A DNA stretch of 63,995 nt, the filler included, from Folioceros fuciformis (taxonomy: Eukaryota), in the NCBI GenBank assembly GCA_049999805.1. It is 5 parts of 5 records of this genome, joined end to end, with 100 filler letters (N's around TTAATTAATTAA, not from the genome) between each part and the next. Parts side by side here need not be neighbours in the genome. Positions count along the whole stretch, not along the records: positions 1 to 30,860 come from JBNGIO010005673.1; 4 more parts are not named here. One strand, 5' to 3'. The notes under the pieces were generated by a model. That model was not told the DNA's origin and made no database searches. It was given only the letters and a program-made list of their open reading frames with translations. The position numbers and the translations under genes are program-made. Positions 1,069 to 63,325 of the stretch are shown piece after piece. Every line of letters starts with the position of its first letter. Position 1 is the stretch's first letter.

Positions 1069-1712
1069 GAAGTTGGAGGGAGAGCGAAATTGCGAAGCAT
1101 CAACTAGAGTCAACTCAGGACGAGGAAGGCTACGGGGACGAGGCGGACGGATGAGTTCGGTTTGGTTGATGACCGACTGGAAGTGGAGGTAGTCTACGGA
1201 GCGCGTCACAGGACAGGGCAGGAGAGGACTGGACGAATCCGGAGCACGGTGGCACAGTGCAGTTTATGAGCTCCCGCTTTATCTTCCACATCGGCCACTA
1301 GCTTTGGGTGCTGTGCGTACCCTTGTGCACGTTGCACCTCCTCCAATTGCATGCGATTTGCAGCTCCTGCAAAACAGTTGTCGAGCTTAAGGTCGGAGCA
1401 GGTGTGTCGGCTGGGCAAGGTGTTGTGGATCTTATCGTCATCTGCTTCTGTGCCGTGTTTGTGAAATTGGCACGATCGGGTGCTGGCAGATCGATTTTCA
1501 TTCGGGCTAGGGTTTTGAGGCAGTGTTCTCGGAGATTTGGAAATTGCAGAGGTTGGAACTCCCGGTCTTGGGAATTGCATGGCATTGCCTGTGGATTGTA
1601 CTCGTAGATGAGATCGTAGTTCTTGAGGGCCAAATCGATTACGGCTGTGTGGGGGACCCTGCTAGTGCTTGGCTTGGACTCGAAGTGTAGTCCCACCAGG
1701 TAGACGGAAAAA

Positions 1713-4638
1713 ATGTACGGGGGAGGATTGATGGATCCGGACGTGATGCGGCTGGCTCAAGAGCAGATGAGCCGCCTTCGGCCTGAAGATCTTCGAAGAA
1801 TGCAGCAGCAGGTACAGATCCTTCCAGAAGCAATCCCGGCACTTGTGATATTGTTTGGAACATGGCTTTGCCCTAGTTGCAGCTTCAGTCTGTGGTTTCA
1901 TGTATCGTTGGTCTTAAAGCCGGTTGCACAAGCTTAAAACCTATCGCGCTTGGCTTTGTTTGATTCCGGGTCTTAGATCATTGTAGCGGGCCGTGAGCAG
2001 CTAAGTTGTAGGACGGTGTTCGTGGCAACGAACTCAAACTTGGCTCTTCTGAGGTGATATCATGGATTTTTTTGCAGATGATGAGTAATCCGGACTTGTT
2101 CCGAATGGCTTCAGAAAGCATGAAAAATCTCAGGCCCGAGGACATCAGAATGGCTGCTGATCAGATGAAACAAATGCCAGCCGAGCAAATGGTAGACATT
2201 AGTGAGAGAATGGCAAAAGCAACGCCTGAAGAGCTTGCTAACATGAAAGCGAGAACTGAGGCCTTCAAGAAGTATGAGTTTCAAGGTTCGATGACACTTA
2301 AAGAACAGGTCAGTTGCTGTCTACAATCTCTTCACTGATTTCCTTCCCTGGAGTGAATGATCTGGGTTGAAAGCGTTATACTGGCACTGTCTTGCCTTTG
2401 GAAATGAGGTCTCATTTGAGTACTCCGGCCACACCTCAGGTCTATCAAACATGTCTGGTTGGTTGTACAGGGTAATGAGCTGCATAGCAGTGGGAGGTAC
2501 AGTGAAGCGGCTGAAAAGTATTCTAGGGTAAGTTGCAGTCCCTTTACCAGTGCTCTAGATCATTCTCCAAGAAACATGAGTCTGCTATTACGAGTATGGG
2601 CCAGGACTCAGTTAACTGTTACTTTGCCAGCTATGCCAAGTCTAGTTGGGATAGCCGAGGGTGCCTCCATACTGTTTACTAGGGACATTATCCACTGCCT
2701 AAACCCATTCAATGTTGTGCCTGACTTGCTATTTGTAGGCAAAAGACAATCTGGTTGGGATGTCATCAGGCGAAGCAAAGAAGTTGCGGTTGGCATGCTC
2801 CTTGAATCTAATGTCCTGCTATCTGAAGACCAACCAGCCTAAGGAAGTTGTGGCTGAGGGTTCCGAGGTATTTTCATGCTTTTGGATTTTAGGCTTTGTT
2901 TAGGTCTTTATGTTTAGCAGGCTCAGGTGTCTTGTCACAGGATTCACAGGGTTGTGCATCGGTTCCAGGTGCTGCAGGTTGACCCAGGAAATCTGAAGGC
3001 CTTGTATAGGAGAGGTCAGGCGTACAAGGAGATGGGGAAATATAAGGTGACTTTCGGTTCGCGTCCCTCCTGTCCCCCGTACGTGAGTGTCGTTGGTATT
3101 GTGACTCACTCTAACTTCTGTTCCAGCTGGCAGTTGAAGACCTCAAACGAGCTGCCGAGCTGTCACCGGATGATGGGACCATTGCTGACGTTTTAAGGTT
3201 AAAGATGTGAACATTTGATGTCCTTACGTCGGACCATGTGCAAAGATGTGGTAACTTACATGTCATGTGCTCATTCAGACAAGCGGAAAGCGACCTCGAA
3301 TTCTACGAACCAGTGGAGGTTCTCAGGGATGGTAAAAACCTTACCTTACTGAGCTCAAGTTAGCACTTTGTCTTCATTTGAATGAAGGGATCTCTTGACT
3401 ATGAGGATGCCTTCGCAGGACCGTTGATTGAGGAGATAACAGATGAAGAAGCAGAGCGTTTTAGCTCATCCTCTCAACCAAGTGAGCGCCGGTCAAATGA
3501 ACCAGAGTGCGCCAATGCAGGAGGGCTGAACAGGGAAGCTGAAGACGCCGCAACCAGTCATGTTGAACCCTCTGCCATTAATGATCAAAATTTTGCTGAA
3601 ACCATGAGTGCTCTGAGGGAGAATCCTGAGATGATAAGGCATGTCAAGTCTTCTACCCAACGGTCTTCACTTCTTAGACAATCTGTCAAATTTTAGTTGA
3701 CATTTCCTCACGCTTATCTGTTATCTTCAGGAACGCTTACACGATGATGTCCAACTTGAACCCTGAGCATATTGCAGAGCTCAGCGGTGGTGGTTTGAGT
3801 CCTGAGATGGCTAAGCTCGCAGCTGACATGGTGAAACAGATGTCACCAGACGAACTTCAGAGGATGGTAGAAATGGCCAGTGTGGGTGGGCGGGAAGGTG
3901 GTTCTGCTTCTCGTTCTTGGCCGGATTCGAGGCCAAATGGTGTAACCAATGCAGTTCATCCTGCGTCAGTTTCTGTTCCTGATTCCAGGTCATCAATTTC
4001 CGAGATCTCAGCAGAGGCTGGTCCTTCGCAGAGATTTAACAGTTCTGGGCCTGTGTCAAGTACGCCCGATATTAGCGGCAATATGGAGGAGCATTTGCGC
4101 AAGCAAATGAAGAATCCTGCAATGATGCAGGTCAGATGTTGTTCACACGATAAATTGTCCTGTCCAGCTCCTTCGTTTTGTCTCCTTTTGTTGACGGACA
4201 GTGGTTTGTCTCTCTGCAGATGATGGCATCAATGATGAAAAGCATGACGCCCGAGATGATGTCAAATATGAGTGAGCAGCTGGGAATCAAATTATCTGCA
4301 GAAGAGGCACGACAAGCTCAAAAGGCGATGTCAAGTTTTAGCCCCGATGAGATTGATAAGCTGGTAAGGTTTTCCCCTAGTTACAAATGATCTACAGTTC
4401 GTTTCTAGCCTTAGCAGACGATTTGGAGTGACGTACTTGATTTGTCCTCGCGGACTACATAAAGGTAATGAACCGTATGCACGTACTGCAGATGAGATGG
4501 GCTGAAAGGGCGCAAAGGCTGGGTGAACAAGGAAAGAGGGTAAAAAATTGGTTGCTAGGCAGGCCTGGTCTGGTACTGGCAGTGTTGATGTTGCTAGTAG
4601 CAGTAATTCTCCACTATTTCGGGGTGATCGGCAGCTAG
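1713..4638 (+). CDS. OEP61: Outer envelope protein 61-like TPR chaperone receptor with C-terminal tail anchor. 11 exons: 1713-1811, 2078-2308, 2471-2527, 2739-2867, 2969-3046, 3127-3197, 3279-3331, 3419-3638, 3731-4130, 4220-4363, 4492-4638
   Basis: Spliced translation gives MDPDVMRLAQEQMSR..., the TPR clamp (GNELHSSGRYSEAAEKYSR, LACSLNLMSCYLKTNQ, KALYRRGQAYKEMG), Met-rich repeats and the C-terminal TM segment NWLLGRPGLVLAVLMLLVAVILHYFG. All introns are GT-AG except one GC-AG (3639-3730), and the frame is consistent throughout. Confidence 0.93.
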
Positions 4639-5568: not shown

Positions 5569-5778
5569 TTACATGGTTGATTTTATGAGCTTAAACCCAG
5601 CTTGTCTTTGCTGACATGTCCTAGTGCCAAGCATGTCAAGTCCCAACATGATATATAAATGCACTAATACTTGTTCCTTGTCTGTCAATTGGACTTCATG
5701 CCATGCTTGAAACTTATAGTAATATATGCACATTACTACGTTTGATTGCATTTTGACATAGCAAGATGGGCAACCCAA
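5569..5778 (-). pseudogene. Degenerate RPA70-C/OB-fold-like ORF fragment (paralog at 13904-14200)
   Basis: GCPSCYVK...MC..YYYKFQAWHEVQLTDKEQVLVHLYIMLGLDMLG loosely matches the CxxC...VxD...F...LLG pattern of RPA1 C-terminal domains. The peptide is conserved in the second module copy. Confidence 0.3.
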
Positions 5779-6097
5779 ATGGAACGTGTGAAGTACATTT
5801 TTCGTGAGTAGCTAATAGCCTCCAACAATGCGGTGGTTTGTCACGAGGACAATCCATAAGCTTCTTTGTAGATTGAGTGGAAAATAAGTAAAATACGATC
5901 CTTAAGTTTATGACAACTTGGATTCATAGTGTAAAATTGTTGGTAAACTTTATAAAAGAGATCTACAATAGAGAGGGATATACTAAAGCCTAATTACGAG
6001 TACAAGTGGGGTGGTGAACTATCTTATCATTGTTTTCATTTGTTGCAAGACGAACACAAAGGGTGTTAATCAATGACTTGTTGTCGTTGGAAGGGCT

Positions 6098-6278
6098 TAA
6101 GGCACACTCTAAGAAAATACTAGCTAAGCTTGTGAGAATGCTATAAAAAGCAAGTACATAAGGTAAACTTTAAGAAGATACTAGCTAAGCTTGTGAGAAT
6201 GCTATAAAAAGCAAGTACTCAAGGTACACTTAAAGAAAATACCAACTAAGCTTATGAGCATGCTATATACAAGCAAGT
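6098..6278 (+). repeat. ~61-bp tandem repeat, 3 units (2 units in module copy 2, ~14568-14685)
   Basis: Unit approx. AAGGxACACTTxAAGAAAATACxAGCTAAGCTTGTGAGxATGCTATAAAAAGCAAGTACT repeated head-to-tail. Confidence 0.85.
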
Positions 6279-6472
6279 TTGAATAAAGCCTAATATCAAA
6301 AATAAGAAGAAGGAAGGAACGTGTGGTCAAATGACCAAGCTATAAAGTTTAAGCTTCTGAAAGCATTTTTACTATGAGATCCACAGGCAAACAAGAACCT
6401 CTAATATTATCATCATAAGAGAGGCATCTATATGGGCTCAATCTTCTCAAAACTTTGATTGAAAGATTTGCA

Positions 6473-6928
6473 ATGGAAGACACCCTTGAAATTTCACAAG
6501 AGATGCTAACAAGGTTTATGCTTGAAGTACGGGATTTGTTAAACCAAGCATGGATTATGCAAAATGATACATGGAATTTCCTACATCAAGGATACAAAAG
6601 GCAAGCTCAAATTGAAGATGGACTCAATGAGATGCAAAATGATATGGATACAATACAACCTCAATCACAGAATATTCTAAATGACGTTCTGGGCCCCGCT
6701 CCACAACAACAAGATTTTCTTGAATATTGTCGTAACAATCTTATTGAAGAAATTCTTCATTCCCCAAGTCTAGATGAAACGTGTAGTATATGTATGGAAA
6801 CTCAAGAACAAGGTGATCGTAGAATATGTAGACTACGGTGTTGTACATACATTTTTCATGAGCATTGTATTTTGCAATGGCTTAGGAGATGACAATCTTG
6901 TCCACTTTGTAGAAGAACAATGCTTTGA
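6473..6928 (+). pseudogene. Intronless RING-H2 E3-ligase-like gene, copy 1, with a premature TGA at 6890-6892 before the last CxxC
   Basis: CSICMETQEQGDRRICRLRCCTYIFHEHCILQWLRR*QSCPLCRRTML. One zinc-ligand His is Tyr relative to copy 2. Confidence 0.75.
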
Positions 6929-7354
6929 TCCTCAATGCCACATCTAGAAACATATGTCCTTTCTAGGGCTTTTAAACTTGTTGCAACTTTTGTGACAATC
7001 TTTAAAAGTGTTATAAAAGGAGTCTTGTGCAATAGGGGTAGTGACCACTTCTATGGATGTTGCACATCATTATACTACATGCTTTGTATAATTAAGCATA
7101 GTCAATGAAAGAGTTAACTCACAACTAGATGTTTAAGGTCTAAATAATATTTGAAAGTAACCATGTTTCCGAGCATTATTTATTAAGTTTTTGTCTTGAA
7201 TCCTAAAGGTTTGGATTTTGAGTGCTAGAATGAACAAGGTGATGGAGGGAGGTTAATATGACTACAGCCTCGGCCACATTGGGAATTGACATCCTTAGTG
7301 CTTTTGCTTGTCAATATTTGTTTTTTGGTGAAGAGGATATTGTTCATTTTAGCA

Positions 7355-7891: not shown

Positions 7892-8119
7892 CTAGTTAGT
7901 GGCTGATGTTAACAAAAAGTCCTTACCTACGTCAAATGCAACAACCCTTGTCTGACAAGACTCATCTTCAACCAGGAGTCGGAGCTGGTAGCATAGCTTT
8001 TTAAATGCTGGAACCTCCTCGCAAGTTGCACACTTGCTTGTGGATGGCAACTTGGAATTGCAGGTTGGACACCCTTCGTAGAGTGCGAAAGCAGCCCTAT
8101 CACACTCGACAACCACCAT
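7892..8119 (-). pseudogene. RPA70 C-terminal (zinc-binding OB-fold) like fragment
   Basis: YEGCPTCNSKL...CATC...YQLRLLVEDESCQTRVVAFDVGKDFLL matches the YxACxxCxKK...CxxC...YxLxxxVxDxT....xF pattern of RPA1 DBD-C. Such ORFs are typical of plant Helitron cargo. The ORF is short and terminates early. Confidence 0.6.
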
Positions 8120-8482
8120 GAGGAGGACATGGTGCTGGACTTCTGCAGCATCCTAATCCTGGACAAGCTCTTCAAGAGTGGTGATGAGCTGTGGCATTTG
8201 GACTTCAATTCCAAAGACACGCAACTCACTATCACCAACTATGAGCCTCCTCCTGCACTAGAGCGTGCCAACCTCCTTCGGGATCCTAAACCCGCGAGGA
8301 ATGCAACAGATTGATGGATCACGCTTAGCTTCAGGTGCCTCTCCCGGCACACACGACGCGCAACTTGAGTTTCAAGTTCTGGGGTGAGGCTGCATTTTAG
8401 ATTGGTATATCTATGGTTGTCTGTATACAGAAATTGTACTAGGCTAAGCGGGCGCCCGGTAGGTCATGTAATGCCCATGAAG

Positions 8483-8662
8483 GGCATGGATGGTCTGCTG
8501 GTGGTGGGCCCGTGGGATCACAGCGCATCGCGAAGCGGAACCTCATCACTCCACGGGAGGTTTAGCTCATGCCGGCATGGAGGGTCTGTTGCTGGTGGGG
8601 TCACAGCGCATCGGGAAGCGGAACCTCGTCACTCTACCCTACCCGCAGGTTTAGCTAATGCC
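8483..8662 (+). repeat. Imperfect ~90-bp tandem duplication upstream of the alpha-kinase gene
   Basis: Units 8483-8573 and 8574-8662 share TCACAGCGCATCGxGAAGCGGAACCTC and GGTTTAGCTxATGCC. Each begins with GGCATG. Confidence 0.75.
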
Positions 8663-8982: not shown

Positions 8983-10836
8983 ATGGCGTCTCGACTGTCG
9001 ACCATTGAGGAGGAAAAACGTAGCGAGCTGGCATCTGCAACTAAGAGCAGTACTAGGCGGGAATTGGAGAACCTGAAGCTGCAACTGCAGAAGCTCGAAA
9101 CAAACATCTCATCGAGTGAGACCAGCAGCAAAAGCAGAACTATAAGGTTCAGCAGCGCAGCTCGGGACCCTGCGTCCTCGCAAACGCGCCAGAAGCTGGC
9201 TATTTTGGAAGCTGAGCTCGCTGCGAAGAATGAGCGGCTGTCTTACCTGGAACGGCACCGCAGGGATGCTACGCAGAAGCGCAAGGATGAGCTGAAAATC
9301 ATCATCCGCAAGGCGCAGGCGCTGGACCTTGCCTTCTTGGTTGATGCTACATGGAGCATGGCAGGCTGTATAGATATAGTGAAGGATGAGGTGGCTTCTG
9401 TGGCGAAGGGCATCGCTGAAGCACATCCTCAATCCAATCTTCGTGTGGCGTTCGCCTCCTACCGAGATTACGACGATCCCCCTTACAAGAGCTGTGACTT
9501 TACCTCCAGCTTCCGCGGTCTTGGCAGCGTCTTCGTAAGAGCCCTTTCAGAGGTGAAGGCGTCTGGCGCTGGCGTCGATGCCGCGGAAGATGTTTTTAGT
9601 GGCCTTGAGGATGTGGCCAAGTTGAGCTGGCAGGCTGCTAGTCGTGTGTTGATTCACATTGGTGACGCCCCTTGCCATGGCAGGCGGTTTCATGACGGGG
9701 TTGGAGACAGGTATCCGAACGGGGACAAGCTGCATCGGGACATCGGCCTTCTGCTGCGGACCTTGCGCAATGGGTGCAAAATATCAAGCTACACATTTTG
9801 TCACCTAAACCAGTCTACTAAGAAGATGGTGACGGAATTTGAGAAAGAGGTTGGGGGGGGGTGGATTCAGCAGGAGCTCTTCGACGATATCAGCGACATA
9901 CCGCTGAAGGTTGTGGCGGTCTCCAACGAGACCATAGCCAGCACGTTGAGCTGCCTGGGCAAATCAAAAGGCGTGCCGGGGCCCCACGCGTACGTTTCCG
10001 AGGTGGTGCAGCCTGGGATTCCCGATTGGAAGGAGATTCCCCGTCGGACGGCGCAGCAGTTGAGGGGCAAGTTCTACGGGTCCTTGGATCAGCTTTTGGA
10101 GAGACTGGCTTCGGGCAAGACACTTGATCTAGAGTCAATGCCAACGGTTGATGTGCATATAGCACGACATCCATTCAGTGCAAGTGGAGCTATGCGGTGG
10201 CCTTATTATGCACAGGTAACAGATGTCTTGACAAAAGCATGCCTTCCGATGGTCGTGAAGAGGTTCAAGATGCCTTCGGCTGCAAAGAGCTCGGATGTTC
10301 ACCGTGAAGGGCGATACCTGGAGCAGATGGAGGTGCAAACTGTGTCTGCACAGATGGCCACAGAATTTAACAAGAAGATGAAAAACCTGGCAGGAGCAAA
10401 GCAGGTTACGTTCTCCATGGTAACAACTCTTAACGTGGAGGGTGCACAGGGCGGGCCAAGCCTTTCCTATAACATGGAGAAATTTCTGAAAGGGTCATGG
10501 ATAAAGTATTCGAACAATGCGGGATATGTAAATACGGCAGATTACGCTGCAACCTTACAGGCGTTCAGTCACTGGACGCATGAAAGGTCAAGAGGTCTCT
10601 TCATGGTGACGGACCTCCAGGGAGTGCGTGTGCAAAGTTCAAACGGCGAGAACGAGTTTTGGCTGTCTGATCCAGCCATACACAGCAAGGATTTGTTGCG
10701 CTTTACTGCCACAAACTTAGGAGAAGCAGGATTCGAGCTCTTTTACGAAACGCACAAATGCAACGATGTGTGCCGGGGTCTAATGCTTAAGCCATGCATG
10801 AACGGCTACACTGTTGCAGGTACAAGGCTCCGGTAG
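8983..10836 (+). CDS. Intronless coiled-coil + von Willebrand factor A + alpha-kinase protein (VwkA-like atypical kinase), ~617 aa
   Basis: First ATG at 8983, following a likely 5'UTR acceptor at 8950. vWA MIDAS motif LDLAFLVDATWSM, plus LRVAFASYRDY, AEDVFSGL and IHIGDAPCHG. Alpha-kinase motifs PFSASGAMR, VVKRFK, MEKFLKGSWIKYSNNAG, LQAFSHWT, VTDLQGV, LSDPAIH, NLGEAG and Zn site HKCNDVC. Confidence 0.92.
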   Translation: MASRLSTIEEEKRSELASATKSSTRRELENLKLQLQKLETNISSSETSSKSRTIRFSSAARDPASSQTRQKLAILEAELAAKNERLSYLERHRRDATQKRKDELKIIIRKAQALDLAFLVDATWSMAGCIDIVKDEVASVAKGIAEAHPQSNLRVAFASYRDYDDPPYKSCDFTSSFRGLGSVFVRALSEVKASGAGVDAAEDVFSGLEDVAKLSWQAASRVLIHIGDAPCHGRRFHDGVGDRYPNGDKLHRDIGLLLRTLRNGCKISSYTFCHLNQSTKKMVTEFEKEVGGGWIQQELFDDISDIPLKVVAVSNETIASTLSCLGKSKGVPGPHAYVSEVVQPGIPDWKEIPRRTAQQLRGKFYGSLDQLLERLASGKTLDLESMPTVDVHIARHPFSASGAMRWPYYAQVTDVLTKACLPMVVKRFKMPSAAKSSDVHREGRYLEQMEVQTVSAQMATEFNKKMKNLAGAKQVTFSMVTTLNVEGAQGGPSLSYNMEKFLKGSWIKYSNNAGYVNTADYAATLQAFSHWTHERSRGLFMVTDLQGVRVQSSNGENEFWLSDPAIHSKDLLRFTATNLGEAGFELFYETHKCNDVCRGLMLKPCMNGYTVAGTRLR

Positions 10837-11419
10837 CTGCAAGGCTGTCATGCCATATGGTTGTTGGGATTGTAAGGCAGGGCTGTAGGGATTGTAAGGC
10901 AGGGGCTGTTCAGCTCTTGGTTTGCTGGATTGGATGCTTCCCAGTTTTGCGTAGATGGCAGCAGCCGCCCTGACAGCATCGATTTATCCCCCGAACTGTG
11001 ACTGACGAACAGGAGGGGAATGAAATCGTGACTGTCGTGATTGTCTTGTCCATTGCCAGAGTCTTAAGAGTAAGGGATACAAATGTGACATCTTGACATG
11101 TTTTCGGAGGCCTGCAAGCAAGGGATAAGAACGCAATCATCTTGCATAGGAGTATATTTACGAACCTTGTTGGTCACATCTCTCGCCTAGCCTGGAGGGT
11201 TCGTAATGCATCTACGTACTCTTCTTAAGTAGATAGATGGATTTTTCTTGGCGGCCTGATCCTTGTGGGGCGATGCAATTTTTTTTTTCTCTGCCTCCCT
11301 TGGTTGAACACAAGGTGTTTTTTTCTCGTTCCTTGGCTCAAGCAAACATCATTGGTATTTCTCCAAAGGATCCATACAAATCTACGTGAAACATAGATTT
11401 CCTGTCCATACTGATTAGC

Positions 11420-12050
11420 CTCCGGCGCTGGAGGCGTGTTCAGCGATTTGGAGGACGAGGCCAATTCGAGCTGGAGGGCTGCTAACTGGGTGATGCGCCT
11501 CGCCATGGCAAACGATTTCACGATAGAGTCGGAGACAGGTTTACCAGGACGCGGACATCGACGAACGGCTTCAGATTTTGCAGCAAGGATGCAAGATCTC
11601 TACGTACGTAAACGAGTTAGCAAGAATGTGGTACAGGAGTACTTTGAGAAAGAGATGGAGGGCAGTTGGATTTACCTGAAGGGAGGCCGGACATGGATGT
11701 TCATCATCGGAGGAGAGGTGTCTCGAAGCGATGGAGGAACAACCAGTGTCTGCACAAACGGCCGAAGAATGCAACAAGGAGATGAAGATTTTGGCTATGC
11801 TGAGGTTCTGTGAGATGACTGTCACAACTCTGGAAGTGACCGATGCATTTAATTTCGACAAGCCATGCCGATTCTACAACACACAGAAGTTTCGGAAGGG
11901 ATCATGGCCAAAGTACATACTCGAACGATGGAATGCTGGAGATGTGAGTACAACAGATTTCGCTGCTACCTCGCAGGCGTTCAGCCGCTCGACGCATGTG
12001 AGGTCCAAAGGTTTCCTTGTGACTCACCTGCTGGCCCGCCGGGTGTGGAC
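11420..12050 (+). pseudogene. Decayed paralog of the vWA-alpha-kinase gene
   Basis: FSDLEDEANSSWRAANWV resembles FSGLEDVAKLSWQAASRV, MEEQPVSAQTAEECNKEMKILA resembles MEVQTVSAQMATEFNKKMKNLA, and DFAATSQAFSRSTHVRSKG resembles DYAATLQAFSHWTHERSRG. It has frameshifts and deletions, and catalytic residues are lost. Confidence 0.8.
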
Positions 12051-12478
12051 GAGGGTTGGCCTGCCTCGCACGCGTGACGCTCGTACATCTGAAGTAGAAC
12101 GAGGCGAAATCGTAAGCTCAAGAGTAGTTTAGCCTCAGTAAGTAGCCTTACCCAGTTGACGCAAAGAAGTACTCGGTGGGGAGGTTCCATCCTCAGGGAG
12201 TAAGCGCAAGAGTAACGCTGCTGGCCCCTGTTATAAATGACGCGAGGACAAGGATTGCGATCCAGTAGCTCAGCCTCCAGTGTTCGCAATTGCCGCAACC
12301 GGGAGGAAGGTCGACGTCTCTGCCACTGTGACGACGGAGGAAATATTCCTGGAAGTTCTAGCTATCTGGCGCGCATCGCGAAGCTATTGTGAGGCCAGCT
12401 TTGAAAAGAAGGCCCGATATTGGAGGCGGCTGCCGTCCCGGGAAACGACATCACCAAGCAGCAGCGTGAAGCCCCGAC

Positions 12479-13306
12479 ATGGCCAAAGCGCCACCAAAGC
12501 CAGTAGTGGAACCCAGCTGGGAAATGATTCCTGGCTATTGCAAGGCACGACAATTCACATTCAAGGTTTACGATTCCTTGGATGACCTTTTGGCCAGACT
12601 GGAATCCCGCATGAAGCTTGAAGTGGAAGATATGGCAACAGTCGCTGTTCAGGTTGATCCAAACCCGTTCAGTGACGAAGGGGCTAATAGGTGGCCGTTT
12701 CATGCGCGGGTAATGGATCTCTCGTCAGGGACAACGACTCCGATGGTGGTGAAGCAGTTCAAGGTCCCGACGCCCAAGGGCCTGGATAAGGAGCGATATC
12801 TGGCACAGATGGAGGTGCAAGTGGTGAGTGCACTATTGGCTGAAGAATTTAACGAGAGTACGAAGAACCTGCAGGGGGCGAGACGGGTGACGTTCTCCAG
12901 GGTCACAACTTTGCACGTGGAAGGTGCCTCCGGGGATCCGTGCAAATACTACAACCTTGAGAAGCCTCTCGAAGGATCATGGAAGAAGTTTTCCTCCAAC
13001 AGTGGATACGTGGATCAGTCCGATTACGCTTGTTCCTTGCAGGCGTTCACCCATTGGACCTATGAGAGGTCTAAAGGTCACCTTATCGTGGGTGACCTCC
13101 AGGGTGTGCGACTGGAGAACCCAGGGTCGGACGAGTTTTGGCTCAGTGATCCCGCAATCTACAGCAGAGATTTGTCACGCTTCACCGAGACGAACATGGG
13201 AGAATCCGGATTTCAGCTTTTCTACAAAACGCACCGATGCAACGATGTGTGCCGAGCGCTGAAACTCAATAAGGTTGGACTTGGATTGCATGGTAAACGC
13301 CAGTAG
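12479..13306 (+). CDS. Alpha-kinase-domain-only paralog, 275 aa; eroded vWA remnant upstream at ~12310-12478
   Basis: Uninterrupted ORF with PFSDEGANR, VVKQFK, LEKPLEGSWKKFSSNSG, LQAFTHWT, GDLQGV, LSDPAI, NMGESG and HRCNDVC. An in-frame TGA at 12467 lies directly upstream of the ATG. Confidence 0.75.
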   Translation: MAKAPPKPVVEPSWEMIPGYCKARQFTFKVYDSLDDLLARLESRMKLEVEDMATVAVQVDPNPFSDEGANRWPFHARVMDLSSGTTTPMVVKQFKVPTPKGLDKERYLAQMEVQVVSALLAEEFNESTKNLQGARRVTFSRVTTLHVEGASGDPCKYYNLEKPLEGSWKKFSSNSGYVDQSDYACSLQAFTHWTYERSKGHLIVGDLQGVRLENPGSDEFWLSDPAIYSRDLSRFTETNMGESGFQLFYKTHRCNDVCRALKLNKVGLGLHGKRQ

Positions 13307-14983
13307 AGTTGTGGATTGAGTTGTTGATTATGGGTTTGCTTCGCAACAGGGCTGCTCTCAAATTTTGCAGTCCATGTTTTTCCCAGTCGTCAGACCTCAC
13401 AGCATTTTTGAGTCATGCTGCTGTGAGTCACCGCGCCTCAATGCTTTTTTCAATCAGGTCTCAATTGCTGTACTGCCAAGGGAAGCAGTATTGTCTTTGG
13501 AATTAGGAGAAGCCGAAACGGTCCAATCTCCACCATGTGCTGATACCCGTTGCTTTTAATATGTTCTTGCATTTTTAATACGTACATCCCAAGCGTCAAA
13601 CGTATCGTGGTGAACGCTTAGCGGTTGTGTTGCGTGCACACCCTACGCTACGCTTGGAACCTAAATGGGAGATGTGAAACACGGTCTTGCGTGACCAGGC
13701 CATGTTGAAAATAAATTTGTAGTTCAATTGAAAATGTATCAATTGAGGTACAAATTCATTCATGACATGATGGGAGTAACATGAACTGCAAACAAGTTCA
13801 TTACAGCCCGTCAACGCAATTTCTTTCACTTTATAGAACTGTCTTTTCCTGCGAGCGAGGGCATTAGAGCTCACTGCTGTACTGCCAAGCAAAGAATATG
13901 TGTCTAAAGAATTAGCATATTTAGAATATTCATCCTAATATGACATGCATATGCGGACACCCATTCATTGTCTTTCAATTGGAATTCATCCCATGCTTGA
14001 ACCTTATAGTAGTATTTGCACATTGGTATGTATGACTGCACTTTGACATTGGTATGTATGACTGCACTTTGACATAGCAAGACGATGCAAATCAAACTTA
14101 TGGATTGTATTTTTCTTAAGTAGTCAATGGCATGGACTCCAACAACATGATGGTTTGTCATGAGGTCAATCCATAGGCTCCCATTAAGGTTGAGTGACAA
14201 ATAAGTAAAACAATTTGACTGAAGTTTATAGTTATTTATTCAACCTATGAAAAACATAAAACTTAATTTCTTCAAAAATATATGTATAGGGTTTACGAGA
14301 GCTCTAGATCTATATATGTAGTGAGGCAATCTTAGTCTTAGATATTTAATTCCTTGGAACCTTGTTTGCAACGATCCTTAAGATTGTGACAACTTGGATT
14401 TATGGTGTGAAATTAGTGGTAAGCTTTATAAAGGAGATCTACAACACAAAGAAGTAGACTAAACCCGAGCGCAAGTGGGACAGTGGACTCTCTTATCATT
14501 GCCCTCATTTGCAGCAAGACGAACAAAAAGGGTTGTAATTAATGCCTTATCATCATTCGAAGGGCTCAAGGTACACTTAAAGAAAATACAAGCTAAGCTT
14601 GTGAGCATGCTATAAAAAGCAACTACTTAAGGCACACTTTAAGAAATACCAACTAAGCTTGTGAGCATGCTATATAAAAGCAAGTTTGAATAAAGCACGA
14701 TATCAAAAATAGAAAGAAGGAAGGAACGGTGTGGTCAAATTACCAAGCTATAAAGTTCAAGCTATTTAAACTATTTTTATTGTGAGCTACAGCCAAACAA
14801 GAACCTCTAATATCATCATCATAAGAGAGGGATCTAGAGAGGCTCAAGCTATAAAGTTCACGCTTCTAAAATCACCTTTACTTTGAGATACACAGCCAAA
14901 CAAGAACCTCTAATATCATTATCATGTAAGAGAGGCATCTATAAAGGCTCAATCTTCTTAAAACTTTGATTGAAAGATATAGA

Positions 14984-15451
14984 ATGGAAGTCACTCTTGA
15001 AAATTCACAAGAGATGCTTATAAGGTTGACCCTTCAAGTGCATGATTCACTAAACCAAGCACGGATTGTGCAAAATGAAGCATGAAATTTGCTACGTCTA
15101 GTGTACGATAGGCAATCTCAAATTCAAGATGGACTGAATGACATGCGAAATGACATAGATACAATACAACCTCAATTGGAGAATCTTTCAAATGAAGTTC
15201 TAGGCCAAGGTGGGCCAGCTCTACAGCAACGCCAGGATTTTCTTCAATATTGTCGTCACAACCTTATTGAAGAAATTCTTCATTCCCCAATTCTAGATGA
15301 AACATGTAGTATATGTATGGAAACTCAAGAACAAGGTGATCATCGAATATGTAGGCTACTATGTTGTACACACATTTTTCATGAGAATTGCATTTTGCAA
15401 TGGCTTCAAAGACGGCAGTCGTGTCCACTTTGTAGGAGAACAATGTTTTGA
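14984..15451 (+). pseudogene. Intronless RING-H2 gene, copy 2, with a premature TGA at 15083-15085; the RING domain itself is intact
   Basis: MEVTLENSQEML...NEA*NLL...CSICMETQEQGDHRICRLLCCTHIFHENCILQWLQRRQSCPLCRRTMF. The stop replaces the TGG (Trp) of copy 1. Confidence 0.75.
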
Positions 15452-15738
15452 TCTTCTATGCAACTACTAGAAACACGTGTCCTTTGTAAGGCTTTTAAAA
15501 TTATTGCACCTTTTGTGATGACCTTTAAAAGTGTTACAAAGGAAAGCTTGCGTGAGAGGCTTAATGATCACTTCTATTGAGAGGCTTAATGATCACTTCT
15601 TTTGATGTTGCACTTTATTGTACGACATACTTTGTATAATTAAGCATAGATAATGAAAGAGTCAATTTACTACTTGATTTTTAAGGTCTAAACAACATTT
15701 GAAAGTAATTATGTTTCTAAGAATTATTTATTAGGTTT

Positions 15739-16359: not shown

Positions 16360-18070
16360 TGTGGGCAAGCGGGTATGGTATCCTACTAGGCACTCGCTCA
16401 CATGTACTGTGGCCACATCAATCCCACGGTCGTTGTAGGCTTCCCCGGAATCGCTCCTCTCTGAGCTTGGTCAGCTACGTCTCTCGTTCCCCTACAATAG
16501 TCAACACTCCCAATCATGTACCTACCAATCCTGCAACACGTCCAGATAGTGGGAGGTCACCATCCCCTCATTTAGAAGGACCCCAGTACTCCCCTCTACC
16601 GATTTCTACCTGCTTACACTCAATACCCTTTCCTCACAAGGCTCCCTATGACACCTTCCTCAACCCAACAATTTAGCTACTCGTCTCGCTACATCCAACG
16701 ACCAACAAGTTTTCCTTCGAGCCTGGTCAGCTCCCTCCAATTGTGTTTATCGTTCACCTGCGACATTCAAACTTCCCTAGCGCGTACCTTCAACACGTCC
16801 AGTCAGTAGGAAGGCACCATTTCTTCACTTGGAAGGGCCCTAGTACCTCCCCCTACCTACACCCAATACCCTTTCCTCACAAGTCTCCTTACAACACCTT
16901 CCACAACGATCCAACTGCTCGTCTCCCTATGTCCAATGACCAACAAGTTTTTCCTTGGGCCGGTTGCTATGTGCATGTGCCTGTTAGCGAGAACTTCAAG
17001 GGAGTCTTTCCCTAGAGTCTACCCTCAAGCCAACGGTCACACAAGTATTCCCACACACCTACAACAGCACAACAACCATTCACAAGGGAAGCAACTTGCA
17101 GGGGTGCCCATGGAAGAATATGAGCCCTTCGCCAAGCACTTCGACCACTGCAACATTAGCCACAACCAAGTGCTGTGATGGCACACAACTGGCAACGAGA
17201 TTCCTACGCTCTGCTAAGCATGAGAATTCACCATGAGAAGAGTGTAGAATGTGGTGGTTCATTTCTTTGTGTAGCCTCTCCTTATAGGAGAGATCGACAC
17301 ATGAACCCTCTACTACATGTAGGTGGTGGGCTACCCTTCTCTCCCACTAGGCACCACCAACTTTAATTGTGCACACCTACCAAGAGGCTAAGTCCTACCA
17401 ATAATTGCTAGGGTAGTGCGCACCGCTGAAGATAAGGATTGTTGGCGCTGCCATAGAAGATTTGTTGACCCTCTCTCCAAAACATTGTGGCTAGGACTGC
17501 TCTTGAAGGGAGGCAGAGTCTAAAGGTTGAGCTATTGGGCCCCCCTCCATTATTGGGATTCGTCTTCTTTTGGATCCACGAACTTCCACTATACCTTCCT
17601 CTATGTGGATCTCTTGGGATATCCCTTCACCACCACCTACAGGTTTGGTAGGGAAGGGATCCACTTGTTCTTCAACTTGAGGTTCCTTCCCTACGTAGGG
17701 TGAGGATGTCCCCTTCGTAGGTGGGGTCCCTATTGCTCCCTTCGTAGGTAGGTTCCCTACCCCTCTTCTCGTAGGTAGGTTCCCTACTCCTCCTCTCGTA
17801 GGTAGGTTCCCTACTATTCCCACCCATTGTCGTAGGTAGACTGCCTACCCCACTACCATAGGTGGGGTGTCTACCGTATAAGTACCTTCCCTACCTACGT
17901 AGGTATCTTCCATTTTCTCCACGTAGGTACTCTCTCAATGTATGTAGGTAGACATCGTACTACCTAGGTATCTTCTTATCCTAACCTACCAAAATAGAAC
18001 TAAAAAAATCCATAAAAACCTTCACCAGTCGCTCACTACCTACCATGGGCACTTGCCCAGAAACCTACCT
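16360..18070 (-). mobile_element. Internally deleted Gypsy-like retroelement 3' part (C-terminus of the accessory ORF plus putative 3' LTR); inverted relative of 19130-22868
   Basis: Peptide YVGKEPQVEEQ...GSKRRRIPIMEGGP is shared with 21382-22185. DNA similarity to the reverse complement of 21920-22868. A purine tract precedes the putative LTR, which ends ...CTTGCCCACA at 16360. Confidence 0.6.
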
Positions 18071-19129: not shown

Positions 19130-22100
19130 TTTGGCAAATACCCGCAGTAGGTAGGGAGCGGCTAATAACGTTTGGTCTTGGTTTGGTAGGTTAGATGAGT
19201 GGCGATAATAAGGGGTAGTATTATAAAGAAGTTACCTTCTTTGGGATAGCTACCTATAGGGAGGTATGCCCACGTAGGGAGGATATCTCTGTGGGAGGTA
19301 GTACCCAAATAAGAAATATAGTTGTGAAGGGCAAGCTACCTACAGAAAAGGGGACACCTATGTAGGGTATTTATTAAGGGCAGTTACTACATATAGAAGT
19401 ATACCTACGACAAGAGGGTATTTAAAGAGGTCCCTACCTAAGGTGTCCCATCAACGAAGGGTGCTCACCTCCACGTAGGGAACTACATCTACCTACATAG
19501 CGGGGAATAAGGAAGTAGTTGTGCGACAAGACACCTACGTCAGGGACCTACTTGTTGTGACCAAGCGGACTCAAAGAGAGAGAAAGGGCTTTGCTGTGGT
19601 GAGAGCCATAGGAAGAAACGTGCAAGGGACGTGAAATCAGCTGCACAGAAGCTGGGAGCAGTTGCCAACGAAGGTAGGGGTATAACCTTGCGAAAAGGAG
19701 GGCAACCGACATTCCTGGGGTTTTCTTCCATCAATTATGGCGCGGACCTCCAACAATACTTAGGTGGGTTCCGATAGTAGGGGACGACCCACGAGGGTAG
19801 CCAGCTCTCCCCAAACCAATGTTCCGTCCTTTTCTTGCTTTGGGGGCCAATTGAACTCAAGGGATTTGATAGACCTACGGACTTGGGCATGTGACGCAAA
19901 CATCCAGCTTGACTGGATATATGGCAGACACTGGTCGTATGTTCATGAAGGCTTGGTGAAGGAGTGCTATACCAACCTACAGCAATCGAAGGAGGAGTTG
20001 GAAGCCCTACCTATACGAAACGCGAGGACTAACCCTCGGTGTTGGACTGTTCGGAGCATCCGACAGGTGTATGGTAGGTCGGAAGAGGAGAGCGATGGTA
20101 TTGGGATCCTGGATAAAACCATAGATGGGCGGAGGTCCAGCACCACCCTACCATCTGGGGCACTAGAATTGCTGTTGGGAGGAGAGCTAGCGAAGAACCA
20201 AGAATGGGTGGAGGACTGAGAGGATCAAGGAGCTCAAATGGCGGTTGTTCACTAAGGTGGTTCTTGGATTGGTCAACTATCAACACACCTCATATTTCAG
20301 CAATGCTTTCCTCCACTTCCTTTGGAGAGTGACTCAAGGAGCCAAGCCAAACTTGGGGTTAATTATGTATGAGGCGTATACCTACCACAAGGAGAAGTTG
20401 CTCAAGCTGAACGGTAGGGAGGGGGGGAGTGCACGTCCTTGCTACCTCTCGACTTACTTGGTGCACTTATGGAAGACAGAAGGGTTGTTAACACAAGAGG
20501 AGTTGGAGGAGGCGGAACAACCTTTTGTAGTTGTCCCGTTGCAGGGGGAGGCTTTTATTTCCGGTGGAGTGTTGACCCCTCTTACGGATGAGGAGTCCCC
20601 ACTTGATTCTGAATCCGCCATGGTGGCAGCCTATGATGAGTCTGATGAAGATGACACCCCGTTGATACGGAGACCTAGGGAGCAGCAAAGGGACTGAAGG
20701 CTACTATCAGTCACCACCCCCGCAGCCCTAAATTCTGCCCCAACTGAGATGGAGACAGTGAGGGATCGTGGACCAAGCCAGCCAATAGTTGAGGTAGGGT
20801 ACCAGGTAGAGGATTTGGCGATGACACCAGTAGTGCAAGCACACAGTGGAGCACCAGATTTGGGGAGAAGGAGCCCAATGAATTGGGAAGCAGCCCGAGG
20901 AGCACACGCCACAAGCCAAGGTAACAATACTTCGTTGGGGGTGTGGAGCAACATCATTCAGAGTGGCCAACAGCTACAACACATCAATTGGGGAGAGGCC
21001 CGTGCAATGATTGCAACCCTACTACAGGAGGACATAAGTCGGGATGCAAACCAGGCACGACTAGAATCCAAAGTGCAAAAATTGGAAAAGGAGCGAGAAC
21101 AGTATCTCCTCAAGGATGGTGAGCAAAGGCAAGGACTGGAGAAGTTGACCCAGCAGGTGACCACGTTGCAAACTTCCCAACAAGGTTTATCACATGAGAT
21201 CATTGCATGTCGAAGGGACCTCGCCCAGTCTGAGGAAACTAGGAAGGTAGTGGAGGAACAGCTACGGGAACAAGTCTACGTTGCAAAGGATTAACAAGGC
21301 AAGCTAGATGAGTTGGAGGCACAGAATGCTAAAGCGAACCAAGAACTCCAGCAACGACTTGAAGCAGGGCAACGAGAGTGAGTGGAGAGGGAACAATTGA
21401 CCATCCAATTAAAAGACCTTCAGCAGGAGAAAGCACAACAAGAATCTGAGCATCAGACCAAGATTCACAAGATGCTGGTGGTTCGAGCTCGTAGGTTTCG
21501 TGCTGACTATGCCTACTTGACGGGGTGCATGACCAAGCTTCATGCAACTCATCAAGAAAACCTTGACCTACAGTTGAAGGAAGGGGCGATGGAGGCTGAA
21601 CGGGATATCTACAAGAGTAGATGCGAGGGTGGGGATTGGGTTGTTGACATGGATACCATAGATCTAGCTCAACAGAATCGCAACCTCCACCTACACCAAC
21701 GTCTACTCGCTCATCACAAGGAACTGGCAGCATTGGCAAGGCGAAGGTATCTTGGGCCACATGATGACGACCGTGAGGCCCTGGAGACAGTGCCCCTACC
21801 AACAGACTTTCAAGAGGACAACAGTATGGACTTGGAGCGCTCGCAATGGGAACCTGAGGAGCTGCTATGGGCTAGGAAGAGCACGCAACAAGGGGTACCG
21901 GGAGGGGTAGGGGACCTACCTACGAGAGGAGGGGTAGGAATGGTAGGTACCCTACCTACGGAGGGAACATTCCCACCCTACGTAGGGAAGGAGCCTCAAG
22001 TTGAGGAACAAGGGGAACCCTCCCCTACCAAACTTGTAGGTGGTGGTGAAGGGATAGCCCAAGAGATCCACATAGAGGAAGGTACGGTGGAAGCTTGTGG

Positions 22101-22868
22101 ATCCAAAAGAAGACGAATCCCAATAATGGAGGGGGGCCCAGTGGCTCAACCTTCAGACTCTGCCTCCCTTCAAGAGCCATCCTAGCCATACCTTTTTGAA
22201 AAAGGGGGTCAACGAATCTTCTATGGCGGCACCGACAATCCTAATCTTCATCGGCGCGCACTGCCTTAGCAACTATTGGTAGGTCTTAGCCTCTTGGTAG
22301 GTGTGCGTAGTTAAAGCTGGCTGCGGCTAGTGGTAGGTAGGAAGCTGTCTGCCATCCTATATAAGTAGAACGAAGAACTTGAGCCAGAGGCCCCCGTTCT
22401 TTGATTGTAAGTGTTTCGTGACGAATAGAGAACTAATCTTCGTAAGCCAGCGTGGACATCCTGGCGGAAGGGGGAGCTGCGAGTGCCCTTTCTGTTGCTG
22501 ATCGCAAAGGTTCTTGTGATGTTTGGTTGGGAGTCTTGAACGTAGGGAAACGTGGAGTTGGATCGTGTAGAAGGTGTTGTGAGGAGACTTGTGGGGAAAG
22601 GTGCTGGGCGTAGGTAGTTGGAAGTTGGTAGGGGAGGTACTGGGGCCCTTCCAAGTGAAGGAATGGTGTCTTCCTATTGATGGGACATGTGGCCAGATTG
22701 GTAGGTACGTGGTTGGGAGAGTTGACTAGTGTAGGGGAGCAATAGATGTAGCTGACCAGGCTCAGAGGGGAGCGATTCCGGGGAAGCCTACAACGACTGT
22801 GGGATTGATGTGGCCACGATACATGTGAGCGGGTGCCTGGTTGGGATACCATTCCCACTTGCCCATAG
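19130..22868 (+). mobile_element. Gypsy-like retroelement 3' half: disrupted accessory ORF (~19735-22185, N-terminal plant-transposon-protein-like region plus long coiled coil) followed by a putative LTR
   Basis: Consecutive ORF pieces are broken by stops/frameshifts (EGLVKECY...WTVRSIRQVYG; YLSTYLVHLWKTEGLL; heptad-rich LESKVQKLEKERE). Purine tract GAAAAAGGGGG at ~22198, TATA-like CCTATATAAG at ~22356. No gag-pol seen. Confidence 0.55.
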
Positions 22869-23642: not shown

Positions 23643-25415
23643 AAAAACATAGATGTGATCGACTAGAGAAGAAATTTTTAGAGAGCCCATTTTTATTAAA
23701 GTCGTGTGTCCTTTTAAGGTGTGTGAGGGACACCGATTCGAGGTGTCCCGTGAAAGTGACGATTAGGATTTTGGGACACGACCCTCAAACGTAGCTATTT
23801 AAATCTAACGTTTCGATTTAATGCATTAATAAATGCTGGCTATTAATTTAAGTAATGCAACCCTAATTACTTTAATTTCTTTACTCCCACTTAGCCTGCA
23901 TTCACTCTTAGTAACTCGGCGTATTTACTGGTACAGTCAGCTACATTGTTGCGCGGCCGTGAAATAGAGCCGTCCTTGCGCTGAGACTGAAACGTTTCTC
24001 TCGATGATCTCCTACTGTTAACTTGCCTCCTGTGCCGAAGGCGTCCATGCAAAGTTTGTGCTGGCTTCTGGCAGCTGTATTCTCTTGAAGAAGAGATGGA
24101 GATAGCTCACACAAGGTTGCGATCAGCTCAGAGACTGCCACGGCTCGTCGCTGATGCTCCCTAGAGGTTTTCTCCCAAATTGCATGGATCGATTCATATA
24201 CGCTGAAGTGATTTCACCGATGAAGGCCGCCTCATCTTGAGATATGGTAGATTGGCACTCCAGGCTAACTCCCACTGCAACAAGAAATAAAAAAAATTGC
24301 GCTGTTCGCTAACCGACTGCTTATGTGGTGGCAGAACACTGGTGGCCATGTGCAACAGAGATGCCACTGCGCCAATTCCAGCCGAGCTGAGGATTCCTGC
24401 AAGCATAGGGGTTAGACTACCCTTGAGGCAGTACTGCTCACGCTTCTGAGTTGGCTGTTAAGTCCATTGCCTTGGAGAAGTTATCGTGTTTGTCTCTTGG
24501 CAGGGCTTTAGTTAGAAGATCAGCCACATTGTTGTCCGTTGGGACATACTGCACGGTTGCTTGGCCTTCAGAGATGACTTGGCGTATGAAGTGATGTTTT
24601 ATCTCGATATGTTTTGTCCTCGCATCCATGATAGGATTTTTCGCCAAGGCTATGGCCGATTGATTGTCACTGAGGAGTAGGGTTGGTGCTGCTTGTGTCT
24701 CTCCCAAGGATGCAAGCAGTTCTCGGCTATGAATTATGTCTTGGGCTGCCGTCGTTGTGGCAATGTACTCTGCCTCTGTTGAGGAGAGAGCAACCACCTG
24801 TTGCTTTTTGCTATGCCATGTTATTACAGTTGAGTTCCATTCATCCTTTCCTAACAGCAGGCAGTGTGCAGAGATAGACTTCCTACTGTCGGAATCAGAG
24901 GCCCAATCTGCATCACAGAAGCAGCTAAGAAGTAGGTTTTCTGGTCTCTTTGTGTATAGCAGGCCAAGGTTAGGTGATCCTCCAAGGTAATGGAGGATCC
25001 TTTGTACTACATCCCAGTGCGCTGTGCCGTAATTTCACAGGAACTGGGATGTGACCCCAACTGAATGTGCCAGGTCAGGCCTTGTCCAATTCCTGAAATA
25101 AATGCATGCTCCCACTGTTGACCTATAAGGTACCTTCTCCATTTCCATCCGTTCTTGTTCAGTTGTTGGGCATTGTGCCAAGGTGAGCTTGTCACCAACT
25201 GCCATTGGAGTTACAGCTGGTTTTGCGTCTTGTAGCCTAAACCTAACTAGGACTCGATGTACAAATTGACCTTGATGTATGAAAATCGAGTGTCTAGACA
25301 GGTTTTGGATGATCTGAATCCTTAAGAAGAAGGTCAACTAACCCAAGTCCGTCATGGAGAATTCAGCAATTAGGAAACCTTTCACTTTCGACATGGATTG
25401 GGGACTGCTACCAAT
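23640..25415 (-). mobile_element. Old Ty1/Copia 3' fragment (end of RT, RNase H, 3' UTR, probable LTR)
   Basis: VPYRSTVG...WTRPDL, FCDADWA, VALSSTEAEY, DNQSAI and RTKHIEIKHHFIR, with stops and frameshifts. PPT-like CTCCCACTT at 23884. Confidence 0.8.
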
Positions 25416-46784: not shown

Positions 46785-47105
46785 GGCGCGCCTGGGGGTC
46801 TCGTGTCCGCTGTGCTTTCTGGCGGGAGGCGTCTTCATTCCTTGGCATCTGCCCGCAGTAAGACTCCACAGGACGCGACCCTGTAATCGGCCATGCGAAA
46901 CACACCACGTCAGCCGAATACTGCCATTAACCGTCAACAAACGTCCCAGGAGGTGTCCTGTGACATCTGACTTCTCTGCGAACCCCTTCGCTGCTCCACC
47001 CCTCAGCCTCCTGTAGCATTGCGAGACATATTACGAGAAAAATTGCCTTGTGCCCTCGGCCTGATCACCCTTGCGCGCTTGATAATTTTTCTGCAATACG
47101 TCTGC

Positions 47106-62830: not shown

Positions 62831-63325
62831 NNNNNNNNNNNNNNNNNNNNNNNNNNNNNNNNNNNNNNNNNNNNTTAATTAATTAANNNNNNNNNNNNNN
62901 NNNNNNNNNNNNNNNNNNNNNNNNNNNNNNTGACTGCAAAGGAAGAGCTGGACGCAAACCAGGTGAAGGGGCGGACACAGTTGATCCTACAGCTACTGAA
63001 GTCAACGCTAAACGAGCTAATGATTCAGCCAAGGTATCAAGATCAAGGTCCTCATCCATTCACCAAGCAGCACAGACACAACCAGCCTGGTGAGTCTATG
63101 CTGTGAATTCTGTTCCATGGCTGACTAAACGAGAGGTAAGACACAGAACAGTCACCATAAAAACGAAACAAAACGAAACGACAAAACTCAAGTTAGTTTG
63201 CCCGCCACCGGAAACCTAACTTAACGTTTCGTTTCGTTTCAGCAGTCCGTCGAGGCCAGCAACTGAAGCAGCAACCTCACGCGCGCGACGCTCCAGATCT
63301 GGACCTTCAATCGCACGGGCTGCTA

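Follow-up and report, generated by a model that had tools for sequence, protein, structure and literature searches.

How a gene for an alpha-kinase that has a vWA (von Willebrand factor A-type) domain came to be in a land-plant genome, and whether it is intact there, is the question raised by a locus of Folioceros fuciformis (assembly GCA_049999805.1). The window (the whole stretch of DNA that was analyzed, 63,995 nucleotides in five joined parts, filler included) carries this gene, here termed AK1, in its first part, JBNGIO010005673.1, which spans positions 1 to 30,860; all positions refer to the joined stretch. AK1 was read as a resident, vertically inherited gene of the type of Dictyostelium VwkA that derives from a green-algal ancestor, was kept in mosses, liverworts, and ferns, and was apparently lost in flowering plants. 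A probability of roughly 0.8 was assigned to this reading. The coordinates of the features are collected in Table 1.

AK1 is a real, intact gene. The stop-to-stop frame that contains it opens at 8851, and its start codon is the earliest ATG of that frame; the listing of open reading frames (ORFs) gave bounds identical to those of the first-pass annotation, a model-made note on this DNA that had described an intact, intronless ORF. An alignment of the protein with a Sphagnum ortholog of 613 aa runs from one end to the other and contains no intron-like gaps, and the coding sequence (CDS) was therefore taken to be a single exon. An AlphaFold2 model calculated from a 70-sequence alignment had a mean predicted local distance difference test score (pLDDT) of 89.6 and a predicted template-modeling score (pTM) of 0.85. 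The product is most likely a soluble, active Ser/Thr alpha-kinase; no predicted membrane segment was noted.

The C-terminal half of AK1 was assigned to the alpha-kinases by profile, sequence, and fold. The Pfam profile Alpha_kinase (PF02816) was matched by aa 400-597 over all of its positions (1-185 of 185; E = 1.9e-45; score 155.7 bits, cutoff 21.3 bits). Among solved structures, the best relative by sequence was EhAK1 (4kuj; E = 2.8e-24), followed by eEF2K, MHCK-A, ALPK1, and the TRPM7 kinase. A Foldseek search with the kinase half returned EhAK1 (4kuj_A; E = 1.5e-17, TMt 0.75) and MHCK-A (3lmh_A; E = 4.7e-16, TMt 0.78), with further matches to eEF2K, ChaK, and ALPK1. For aa 340-605, EhAK1, MHCK-A, and eEF2K are the best matches in both sequence and fold, and all three share with AK1 the Lys, the DxQG and DP motifs, the presumed zinc ligands, and the Gly-rich N/D-loop. 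AK1 differs from eEF2K in having 8-9 more residues between DLQG and DP. These relatives are also distinguished by their accessory domains, namely SH3 in EhAK1, WD40 in MHCK-A, and a calmodulin-binding segment with SEL1-like repeats in eEF2K. Neither the C-terminal helical repeats of eEF2K nor the WD40 repeats of the MHCKs were found in AK1, for which Pfam gave only Alpha_kinase and a weak VWA_4 match; just 17 aa separate the end of the kinase domain from the stop codon.

The residues expected of a working alpha-kinase are in place. In the 70-sequence alignment (A2), K426, E499, G547, D563, and P564 are invariant, and conservation is 90% or higher at D544, Q546, H530, H591, C593, and C597. G402 and R405 belong to the P-loop, and R405 is invariant across 12 plant-clade sequences. 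The segments D544-L-Q-G547 and D563-P564 align to the DIQG and DP motifs of EhAK1 and eEF2K, and an N/G-rich loop (TNLGEAG) is located at aa 577-583. The C-lobe contains a His/His/Cys/Cys set (H530, H591, C593, and C597), which are the presumed zinc ligands, as in the ChaK and MHCK-A structures. The excerpted account of MHCK-A in PMC4876393 describes an invariant Lys645, a P-loop Arg592, an Asp766 that is needed for catalysis and is itself phosphorylated, and a zinc atom on which the alpha-kinase C-lobe depends. In the alignment, as opposed to superposed coordinates, K426, R405, and D563 of AK1 match Lys645, Arg592, and Asp766, respectively. The catalytic Lys/Glu/Asp motifs and His/Cys zinc residues that the first-pass annotation had pointed out are accordingly those that the family conserves.

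The middle domain was identified as vWA mainly from the AlphaFold2 model. In a Foldseek search against the PDB, it matched integrin beta I-like (vWA-type) domains with E-values of 4e-8 to 1e-7 and a probability of 1.00. Residues resembling a metal-ion-dependent adhesion site (MIDAS) were found at D121-x-T123-x-S125, D203, and D228; in alignment A2, D203 and D228 are invariant, and conservation at D121, T123, and S125 is 90% or higher. The assignment is one from a modeled fold and conserved motifs, not from Pfam. AK1 thereby has the order vWA, then C-terminal alpha-kinase, in a single polypeptide, and its relatives carry the precomputed families PF25106 and PF02816. An insertion of one residue ahead of AAEDV sets AK1 apart from its plant relatives.

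Immediately after the MIDAS Asp228 lies a family motif, DAPCHG..FH, whose first six residues are aa 228-233 (window 9664-9681). P230 and G233 are invariant in A2, where H225 and H232 reach a conservation of at least 90%; in the 12 plant-clade sequences, C231 and H237 do not vary. Being beside the metal site, the Cys and His residues of this motif might alter its metal preference.

The N-terminal region was modeled with a pLDDT of 46-93. The first-pass annotation had proposed a coiled coil, a vWA domain, and an alpha-kinase; the kinase was confirmed by Pfam and the vWA domain by fold and motifs, and what was found of the coiled coil is two long predicted helices. A complex prediction with two copies of aa 1-335, run without controls, scored 0.00 and counts neither for nor against self-association.

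Among named mosses, liverworts, and ferns, 11 species have full-length relatives with 43-54% identity, and relatives were also found in eight named chlorophyte algae. A word-indexed search gave 17 matches, seven of them from named land plants at 43-54% identity over 72-97% of the length (Sphagnum troendelagicum, two proteins of Adiantum capillus-veneris, A. nelumboides, Ceratodon purpureus, Calypogeia fissa, and Riccia fluitans); the land-plant matches sit on contigs of 4-194 Mb, i.e. of chromosome scale. When only the kinase domain was used, 27 matches were obtained: 12 named land-plant rows, two chlorophytes (Tetrabaena and Haematococcus), three rotifers, and ten without an organism name. 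This search added Physcomitrium patens and further paralogs from Ceratodon, Adiantum, and Riccia. A profile search with alignment A1 gave 15 matches only, some earlier ones being lost to the limit of the word index.

When 1.84 billion cluster representatives were scanned exhaustively with HMMER, the search recovered 6918 proteins at E <=1e-3 and 332 at E <=1e-30, and most of the best 150 of the 6918 covered both domains. Organism names were found for 19 of the 30 proteins that were looked up. The land plants among the 19 were Physcomitrium patens (XP_024373599), Riccia sorocarpa, Sphagnum jensenii, S. tenellum, S. magellanicum, Calypogeia, and Adiantum; the chlorophytes were Edaphochlamys (two proteins), Dunaliella, Astrephomene, Gonium, Tetrabaena, Chlamydomonas eustigma, and Ostreobium; the non-green organisms were rotifers and the brown alga Discosporangium. 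The Tetrabaena protein is labeled “Alpha-protein kinase vwkA” by its source. The proteins of Physcomitrium patens, Ceratodon, Sphagnum, Riccia, Calypogeia, and Adiantum, described as “Alpha-type protein kinase domain-containing proteins”, have the same domains as AK1, but some of the moss proteins possess an extra 200-400 aa of repetitive helical sequence at the N-terminus. The first-pass annotation had raised the prospect of orthologs that are both widespread and characterised. The gene is no rarity of this genome: its orthologs occur widely among mosses, liverworts, and ferns, and no characterised plant member was found.

Part of this distribution was already in print, i.e. that the family is present in a moss and absent from higher plants. 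The part of PMC2686601 that contains Kinomer Table 1 gives an Alpha count of 0 for Arabidopsis, rice, poplar, and Ostreococcus, and a passage in PMC3019232 has stated since 2010 that alpha kinases occur in Physcomitrella and do not occur in higher plants. These two excerpts agree with the earlier description of alpha-kinases as absent from flowering plants. In the accessible text of PMC3218828, the alpha-kinase family is named in the methods only. No functional study of a plant vWA-alpha-kinase was found in the literature on plant, bryophyte, and Chlamydomonas alpha-kinases; kinome supplements, which were outside this scope, may list some members. The presence of a vWA domain in plant alpha-kinases is new. 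A remark from 2010, as excerpted, describes the moss alpha-kinases as “without VWA”; this looks like a detection limit, since the P. patens protein P0230 carries the precomputed vWA family PF25106 and its ortholog AK1 shows a clear vWA fold.

The origin of AK1 was addressed by maximum likelihood in IQ-TREE under LG+C20+F+G4, using 51 chosen rows and 583 columns. The rows comprised two window proteins (AK1 and its paralog AK2, described below), 16 named land-plant proteins, one JGI protein (counted with the land plants, being 0.06 from P. patens), nine chlorophytes, six rotifers, one brown alga, and 16 proteins without names. The land-plant rows formed one clade (support 99/97), which also included P0033, a protein without an organism name. 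Together with five proteins of Chlamydomonadales they formed a clade at 100/98, and the addition of Dunaliella gave a clade at 95/90. AK1 and AK2 were sisters (98/93). There are at least two old paralog groups within the land-plant clade; the placement of AK1 inside it is unsettled, and AK1 is close to none of the named land-plant proteins there. In a FastTree analysis of 143 rows (all proteins of at least 440 aa, minus P0013 and P0015-P0017), AK1 fell in a 14-row plant clade. In an approximately unbiased (AU) test, forcing the 28 green rows into one clade against the seven named non-green rows cost 2.2 log-likelihood units and was not rejected (p-AU = 0.414). The nesting of the land-plant clade with Chlamydomonadales argues for vertical descent within Viridiplantae, as opposed to a recent acquisition from a fungus or protist or to contamination. 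Of the two origins that the first-pass annotation had left open, retention from algae with loss in angiosperms fits this tree, and horizontal acquisition was not borne out by the green nesting or by the AU test.

An ancient transfer, either from a chlorophyte to the embryophyte ancestor or from another eukaryote to the green lineage, would replace descent via streptophyte algae; we hold it to be unlikely. The land-plant clade is sister to Chlamydomonadales and not to all chlorophytes, and the AK1 CDS is intronless, both as such a transfer might leave them. Within the eukaryotes the family is patchy, occurring in rotifers, a brown alga, ciliates, and amoebae, but repeated loss can explain patchiness equally well. 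No streptophyte-algal homolog is among the named matches; however, only a minority of the matches carry names, so the missing charophytes weigh little. The single green clade was not rejected, and the land-plant clade spans mosses, liverworts, and ferns with its old paralog groups, so any transfer would predate the embryophyte radiation.

Several observations weigh against the reading of AK1 as a vertically inherited VwkA-type gene. Neither a streptophyte alga nor a hornwort, lycophyte, or seed plant occurs among the named matches, and the land-plant clade joins the chlorophytes directly for this reason; most matches are without names and the look-ups covered 30 proteins, so these missing lineages are weak evidence of absence. 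The absence from seed plants is taken from the two papers cited above, not from genome searches made here. In the free tree, Gonium/Astrephomene (on a very long stem) and Ostreobium fell outside the supported green core; the choice of green rows for the AU test was made with the tree already in view, and Dictyostelium VwkA itself was not among the rows of the tree. The G+C content at third codon positions (GC3) is 0.61 in AK1 and 0.60 in AK2, compared to 0.47-0.53 in the exons of the upstream gene and 0.25-0.26 in the RING ORFs. The six sequencing runs listed for the stretch include no RNA run, and the expression of AK1 is presumed. That upstream gene (1704-4638), with at least eight ORF pieces, TPR-like parts, Met-rich STI1-like repeats, and a hydrophobic C-terminus, is the neighbor that had earlier been called OEP61; the name was not confirmed, the evidence being sub-threshold TPR matches and weak STI1/ubiquilin-like leads (Atlas 0.84-0.86). 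The make-up of the gene would fit OEP61. With regard to the vWA domain, the VWA_4 match (aa 116-217) reached 19.8 bits, under the Pfam cutoff of 27; the MIDAS begins with DxTxS (DATWS) instead of the canonical DxSxS, DxTxS being family-wide; and AK1 has W124 in the MIDAS loop where its relatives have Gly.

That the stretch might be contaminating or misassembled non-plant DNA, e.g. from a fungus, protist, or rotifer on the plant, was suggested by an architecture first known from amoebae, fungi, and ciliates. AK1 nonetheless nests, at the support given above, among moss, liverwort, and fern proteins from chromosome-scale assemblies and apart from those of rotifers and the brown alga. The flanks hold plant-type Copia elements, a MIP aquaporin gene, and the multi-exon TPR/STI1-like gene. 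Further, a fraction of 0.86-0.87 of the words of the stretch was found in two runs (apparently DNA) that bear the same organism label and may be the source sample. Contamination was thus judged highly improbable.

AK1 is the first of three tandem alpha-kinase copies detected by tblastn. The second, psi-AK, matches aa 193-295 of AK1 (the C-terminal half of the vWA domain, in three frames) and aa 442-555 (kinase), with aa 296-441 lost; it has HLLA where AK1 has DLQG, and Pfam found no match in its two ORFs. It is closest to AK1 (51% over 119 aa). The third, AK2, aligns to aa 347-602 of AK1 at 57% and keeps the catalytic K, DLQG, DP, and the zinc ligands, with Tyr replacing His after DPAI. Over 251 codons, the comparison of AK1 with AK2 gave a dN/dS of 0.16-0.33 and a dS of about 0.9-1.8, from which it follows that the duplication is old and the kinase-only copy constrained; these ratios indicate that AK2 has been under purifying selection. 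Tandem duplication at the locus gave one dead copy and one kinase-only copy. This cluster of AK1, a pseudogene, and a constrained kinase-only paralog is new. An alternative identity for psi-AK, as the ortholog of the truncated Adiantum model GOP47_0007590, was rejected on its 34% identity to that model versus 51% to AK1.

Closely spaced extra copies occur elsewhere: GOP47_0000516/0000517 (adjacent tags) and GOP47_0007588/0007590 in Adiantum, and R1flu_014864/014879 in Riccia. By protein, these neighboring pairs are P0005/P0232 and P0006/P0028 (Adiantum capillus-veneris) and P0012/P0234 (Riccia fluitans). One Adiantum model (281 aa) has no kinase N-lobe, which parallels psi-AK but is of independent origin.

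The cluster also bears on the proposition that AK1 is an unexpressed relic with an open frame, i.e. a young pseudogene or a retrocopy. Its intronless CDS, the dead copy 600 bp downstream, the surroundings rich in transposable elements (of the Copia and Gypsy types, with a fragment of Rep_fac-A_C at 7895-8152), and the lack of RNA among the listed runs would all be compatible with such a relic. A relic would not be expected to keep 617 codons open with every family-invariant residue retained, to align over its full length with orthologs, or to show, against AK2, the divergence and dN/dS of a long-constrained gene, and we consider this proposition quite unlikely. A retrocopy origin was tried separately and rejected; no poly(A) tract lies 3' of the AK1 stop codon.

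The architecture of AK1 had earlier been equated with that of VwkA, the founding member of the vWA-alpha-kinases, and the domain order and coordinates agree with the excerpted review. According to PMC2827801, the vWFa motif of VwkA covers aa 121-233, and the kinase, which forms the extreme C-terminus, covers aa 398-592; the same order and near-identical coordinates are seen in the 617-aa AK1 (vWA, aa 114-325; kinase, aa 400-597). This likeness is one of domain coordinates and of the “vwkA” label on the chlorophyte relative, not of the tree. As further excerpted from PMC2827801, VwkA autophosphorylates, acts on myosin II levels, and is located on the contractile vacuole and Golgi, and Tetrahymena has eight vWA-alpha-kinases. 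Activation of VwkA by Ca2+/calmodulin and the existence of Neurospora orthologs are stated in a portion of PMC1420674.

In the mechanism proposed for AK1, in which the activity of the kinase, its docking through metal, its regulation and substrates, and the expression of the gene are all inferred, the alpha-kinase domain would bind Mg-ATP via K426 and the P-loop R405, and phosphate would be transferred to Ser/Thr through D544 (DLQG) and D563 (DP), while the putative zinc site (H530, H591, C593, and C597) would hold the C-lobe. Through its MIDAS-like site (D121, T123, S125, D203, and D228), the vWA domain could bind a partner or a substrate or could control the kinase in cis, and the N-terminal helices may drive self-association. 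By analogy with VwkA, autophosphorylation is likely and a response to Ca2+/calmodulin possible. Land plants are not known to have myosin II, and the substrates of AK1 must therefore differ from those of the myosin II pathway of VwkA. The role in defence that the first-pass annotation had suggested for the kinase found no supporting evidence.

A broader, rather doubtful idea is that the green-lineage VwkA-type kinases form an ancient calcium- or metal-responsive module tied to a trait of chlorophytes, bryophytes, and ferns that most seed plants gave up, e.g. free-swimming flagellate cells or the freshwater osmoregulation of wall-less cells. The module would have been discarded with the trait, and kinase-only paralogs such as AK2 might be partners or decoys of the full-length enzyme. 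VwkA itself sits on the contractile vacuole.

AK1 is an added member of a known, uncharacterised family; the finding is a modest one of evolution and annotation and is not a new kind of system. Its significance is that a complete vWA-alpha-kinase family spans chlorophyte algae to mosses, liverworts, and ferns, with several paralogs per genome, recurrent closely spaced copies, evidence of constraint, and no studied member. Plant kinome work, for which flowering plants with their alpha-kinase score of zero form the basis, usually omits the family. As Physcomitrium patens has orthologs and is easy to knock out, both the function in plants and the reason for the loss in flowering plants are directly testable.

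Table 1. Features annotated at the AK1 locus, with positions in the joined stretch and the evidence for each.
Feature	Position	Strand	Description	Evidence
AK1	8983..10836	+	Complete single-exon CDS, 617 aa plus stop; VwkA-type vWA-alpha-kinase	ORF; Pfam; ortholog alignment; AlphaFold2
N-terminal region, aa 4-112	8992..9318	+	Two long predicted helices (4-51, 63-112), possible coiled coil	DSSP on AlphaFold2 model
vWA domain, aa 114-325	9322..9957	+	Alternating strand/helix in AlphaFold2 model	Foldseek; weak VWA_4; conserved columns
Alpha-kinase catalytic domain, aa 355-600	10045..10782	+		Pfam; PDB sequence matches; Foldseek; conservation
psi-AK	11418..12060	+	Decayed, partial, frameshifted copy	tblastn
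AK2	12479..13306	+	275-aa ATG-to-stop ORF; linker and alpha-kinase only	Pfam Alpha_kinase, E 9.8e-44, 150.1 bits; tblastn
Duplicated segment, upstream copy	5674..7190	+	69-87% identity to 13964-15738	Self-blastn
RING-H2 ORF, upstream copy	6419..6892	+	Ends within RING motif	zf-RING_2, 25.9 bits, sub-cutoff
Duplicated segment, downstream copy	13964..15738	+	69-87% identity to 5674-7190	Self-blastn
RING-H2 ORF, downstream copy	15086..15451	+	Complete	zf-RING_2, E 1.9e-10; zf-rbx1, E 1.1e-10

On either side of the kinase cluster lies one copy of a duplicated segment of 1.5-1.8 kb, and each copy has a RING-H2 ORF. The Rep_fac-A_C fragment is an ORF on the minus strand that lies 830 bp upstream of AK1; its match was sub-threshold (E = 7.9e-5, 22.9 bits), and it may be the remnant of a Helitron-type element. 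Two tandem copies of about 90 bp with 75% identity are located at 8483-8662, i.e. 320-500 bp upstream of the AK1 start codon.

In the rest of the window, mobile elements were found at 24438-30480 (-), 46971-51614 (+), 53966-55177 (-), 60958-62874 (-), and 44293-44922 (+). They comprise bodies of LTR retrotransposons, of Copia type (gag/integrase/RVT_2) and in one case of Gypsy type (RVT_1/RNase H/integrase), and a MULE transposase fragment, and nine short runs of N (452 bases in total) lie in or beside them. Inverted repeats at 16362-17830 and 21888-22865 (about 300-435 bp, 79-86% identity) surround a 4-kb stretch that holds long ORFs (20698-22185) without Pfam matches and is probably another mobile element. 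The MIP aquaporin gene (39787-40940, plus strand) is spread over two or more exons, with Pfam MIP matches at E = 4e-20 and 9e-20; NPG stands in place of NPA in its first signature (HMNPGITLA), and its second is NPA.

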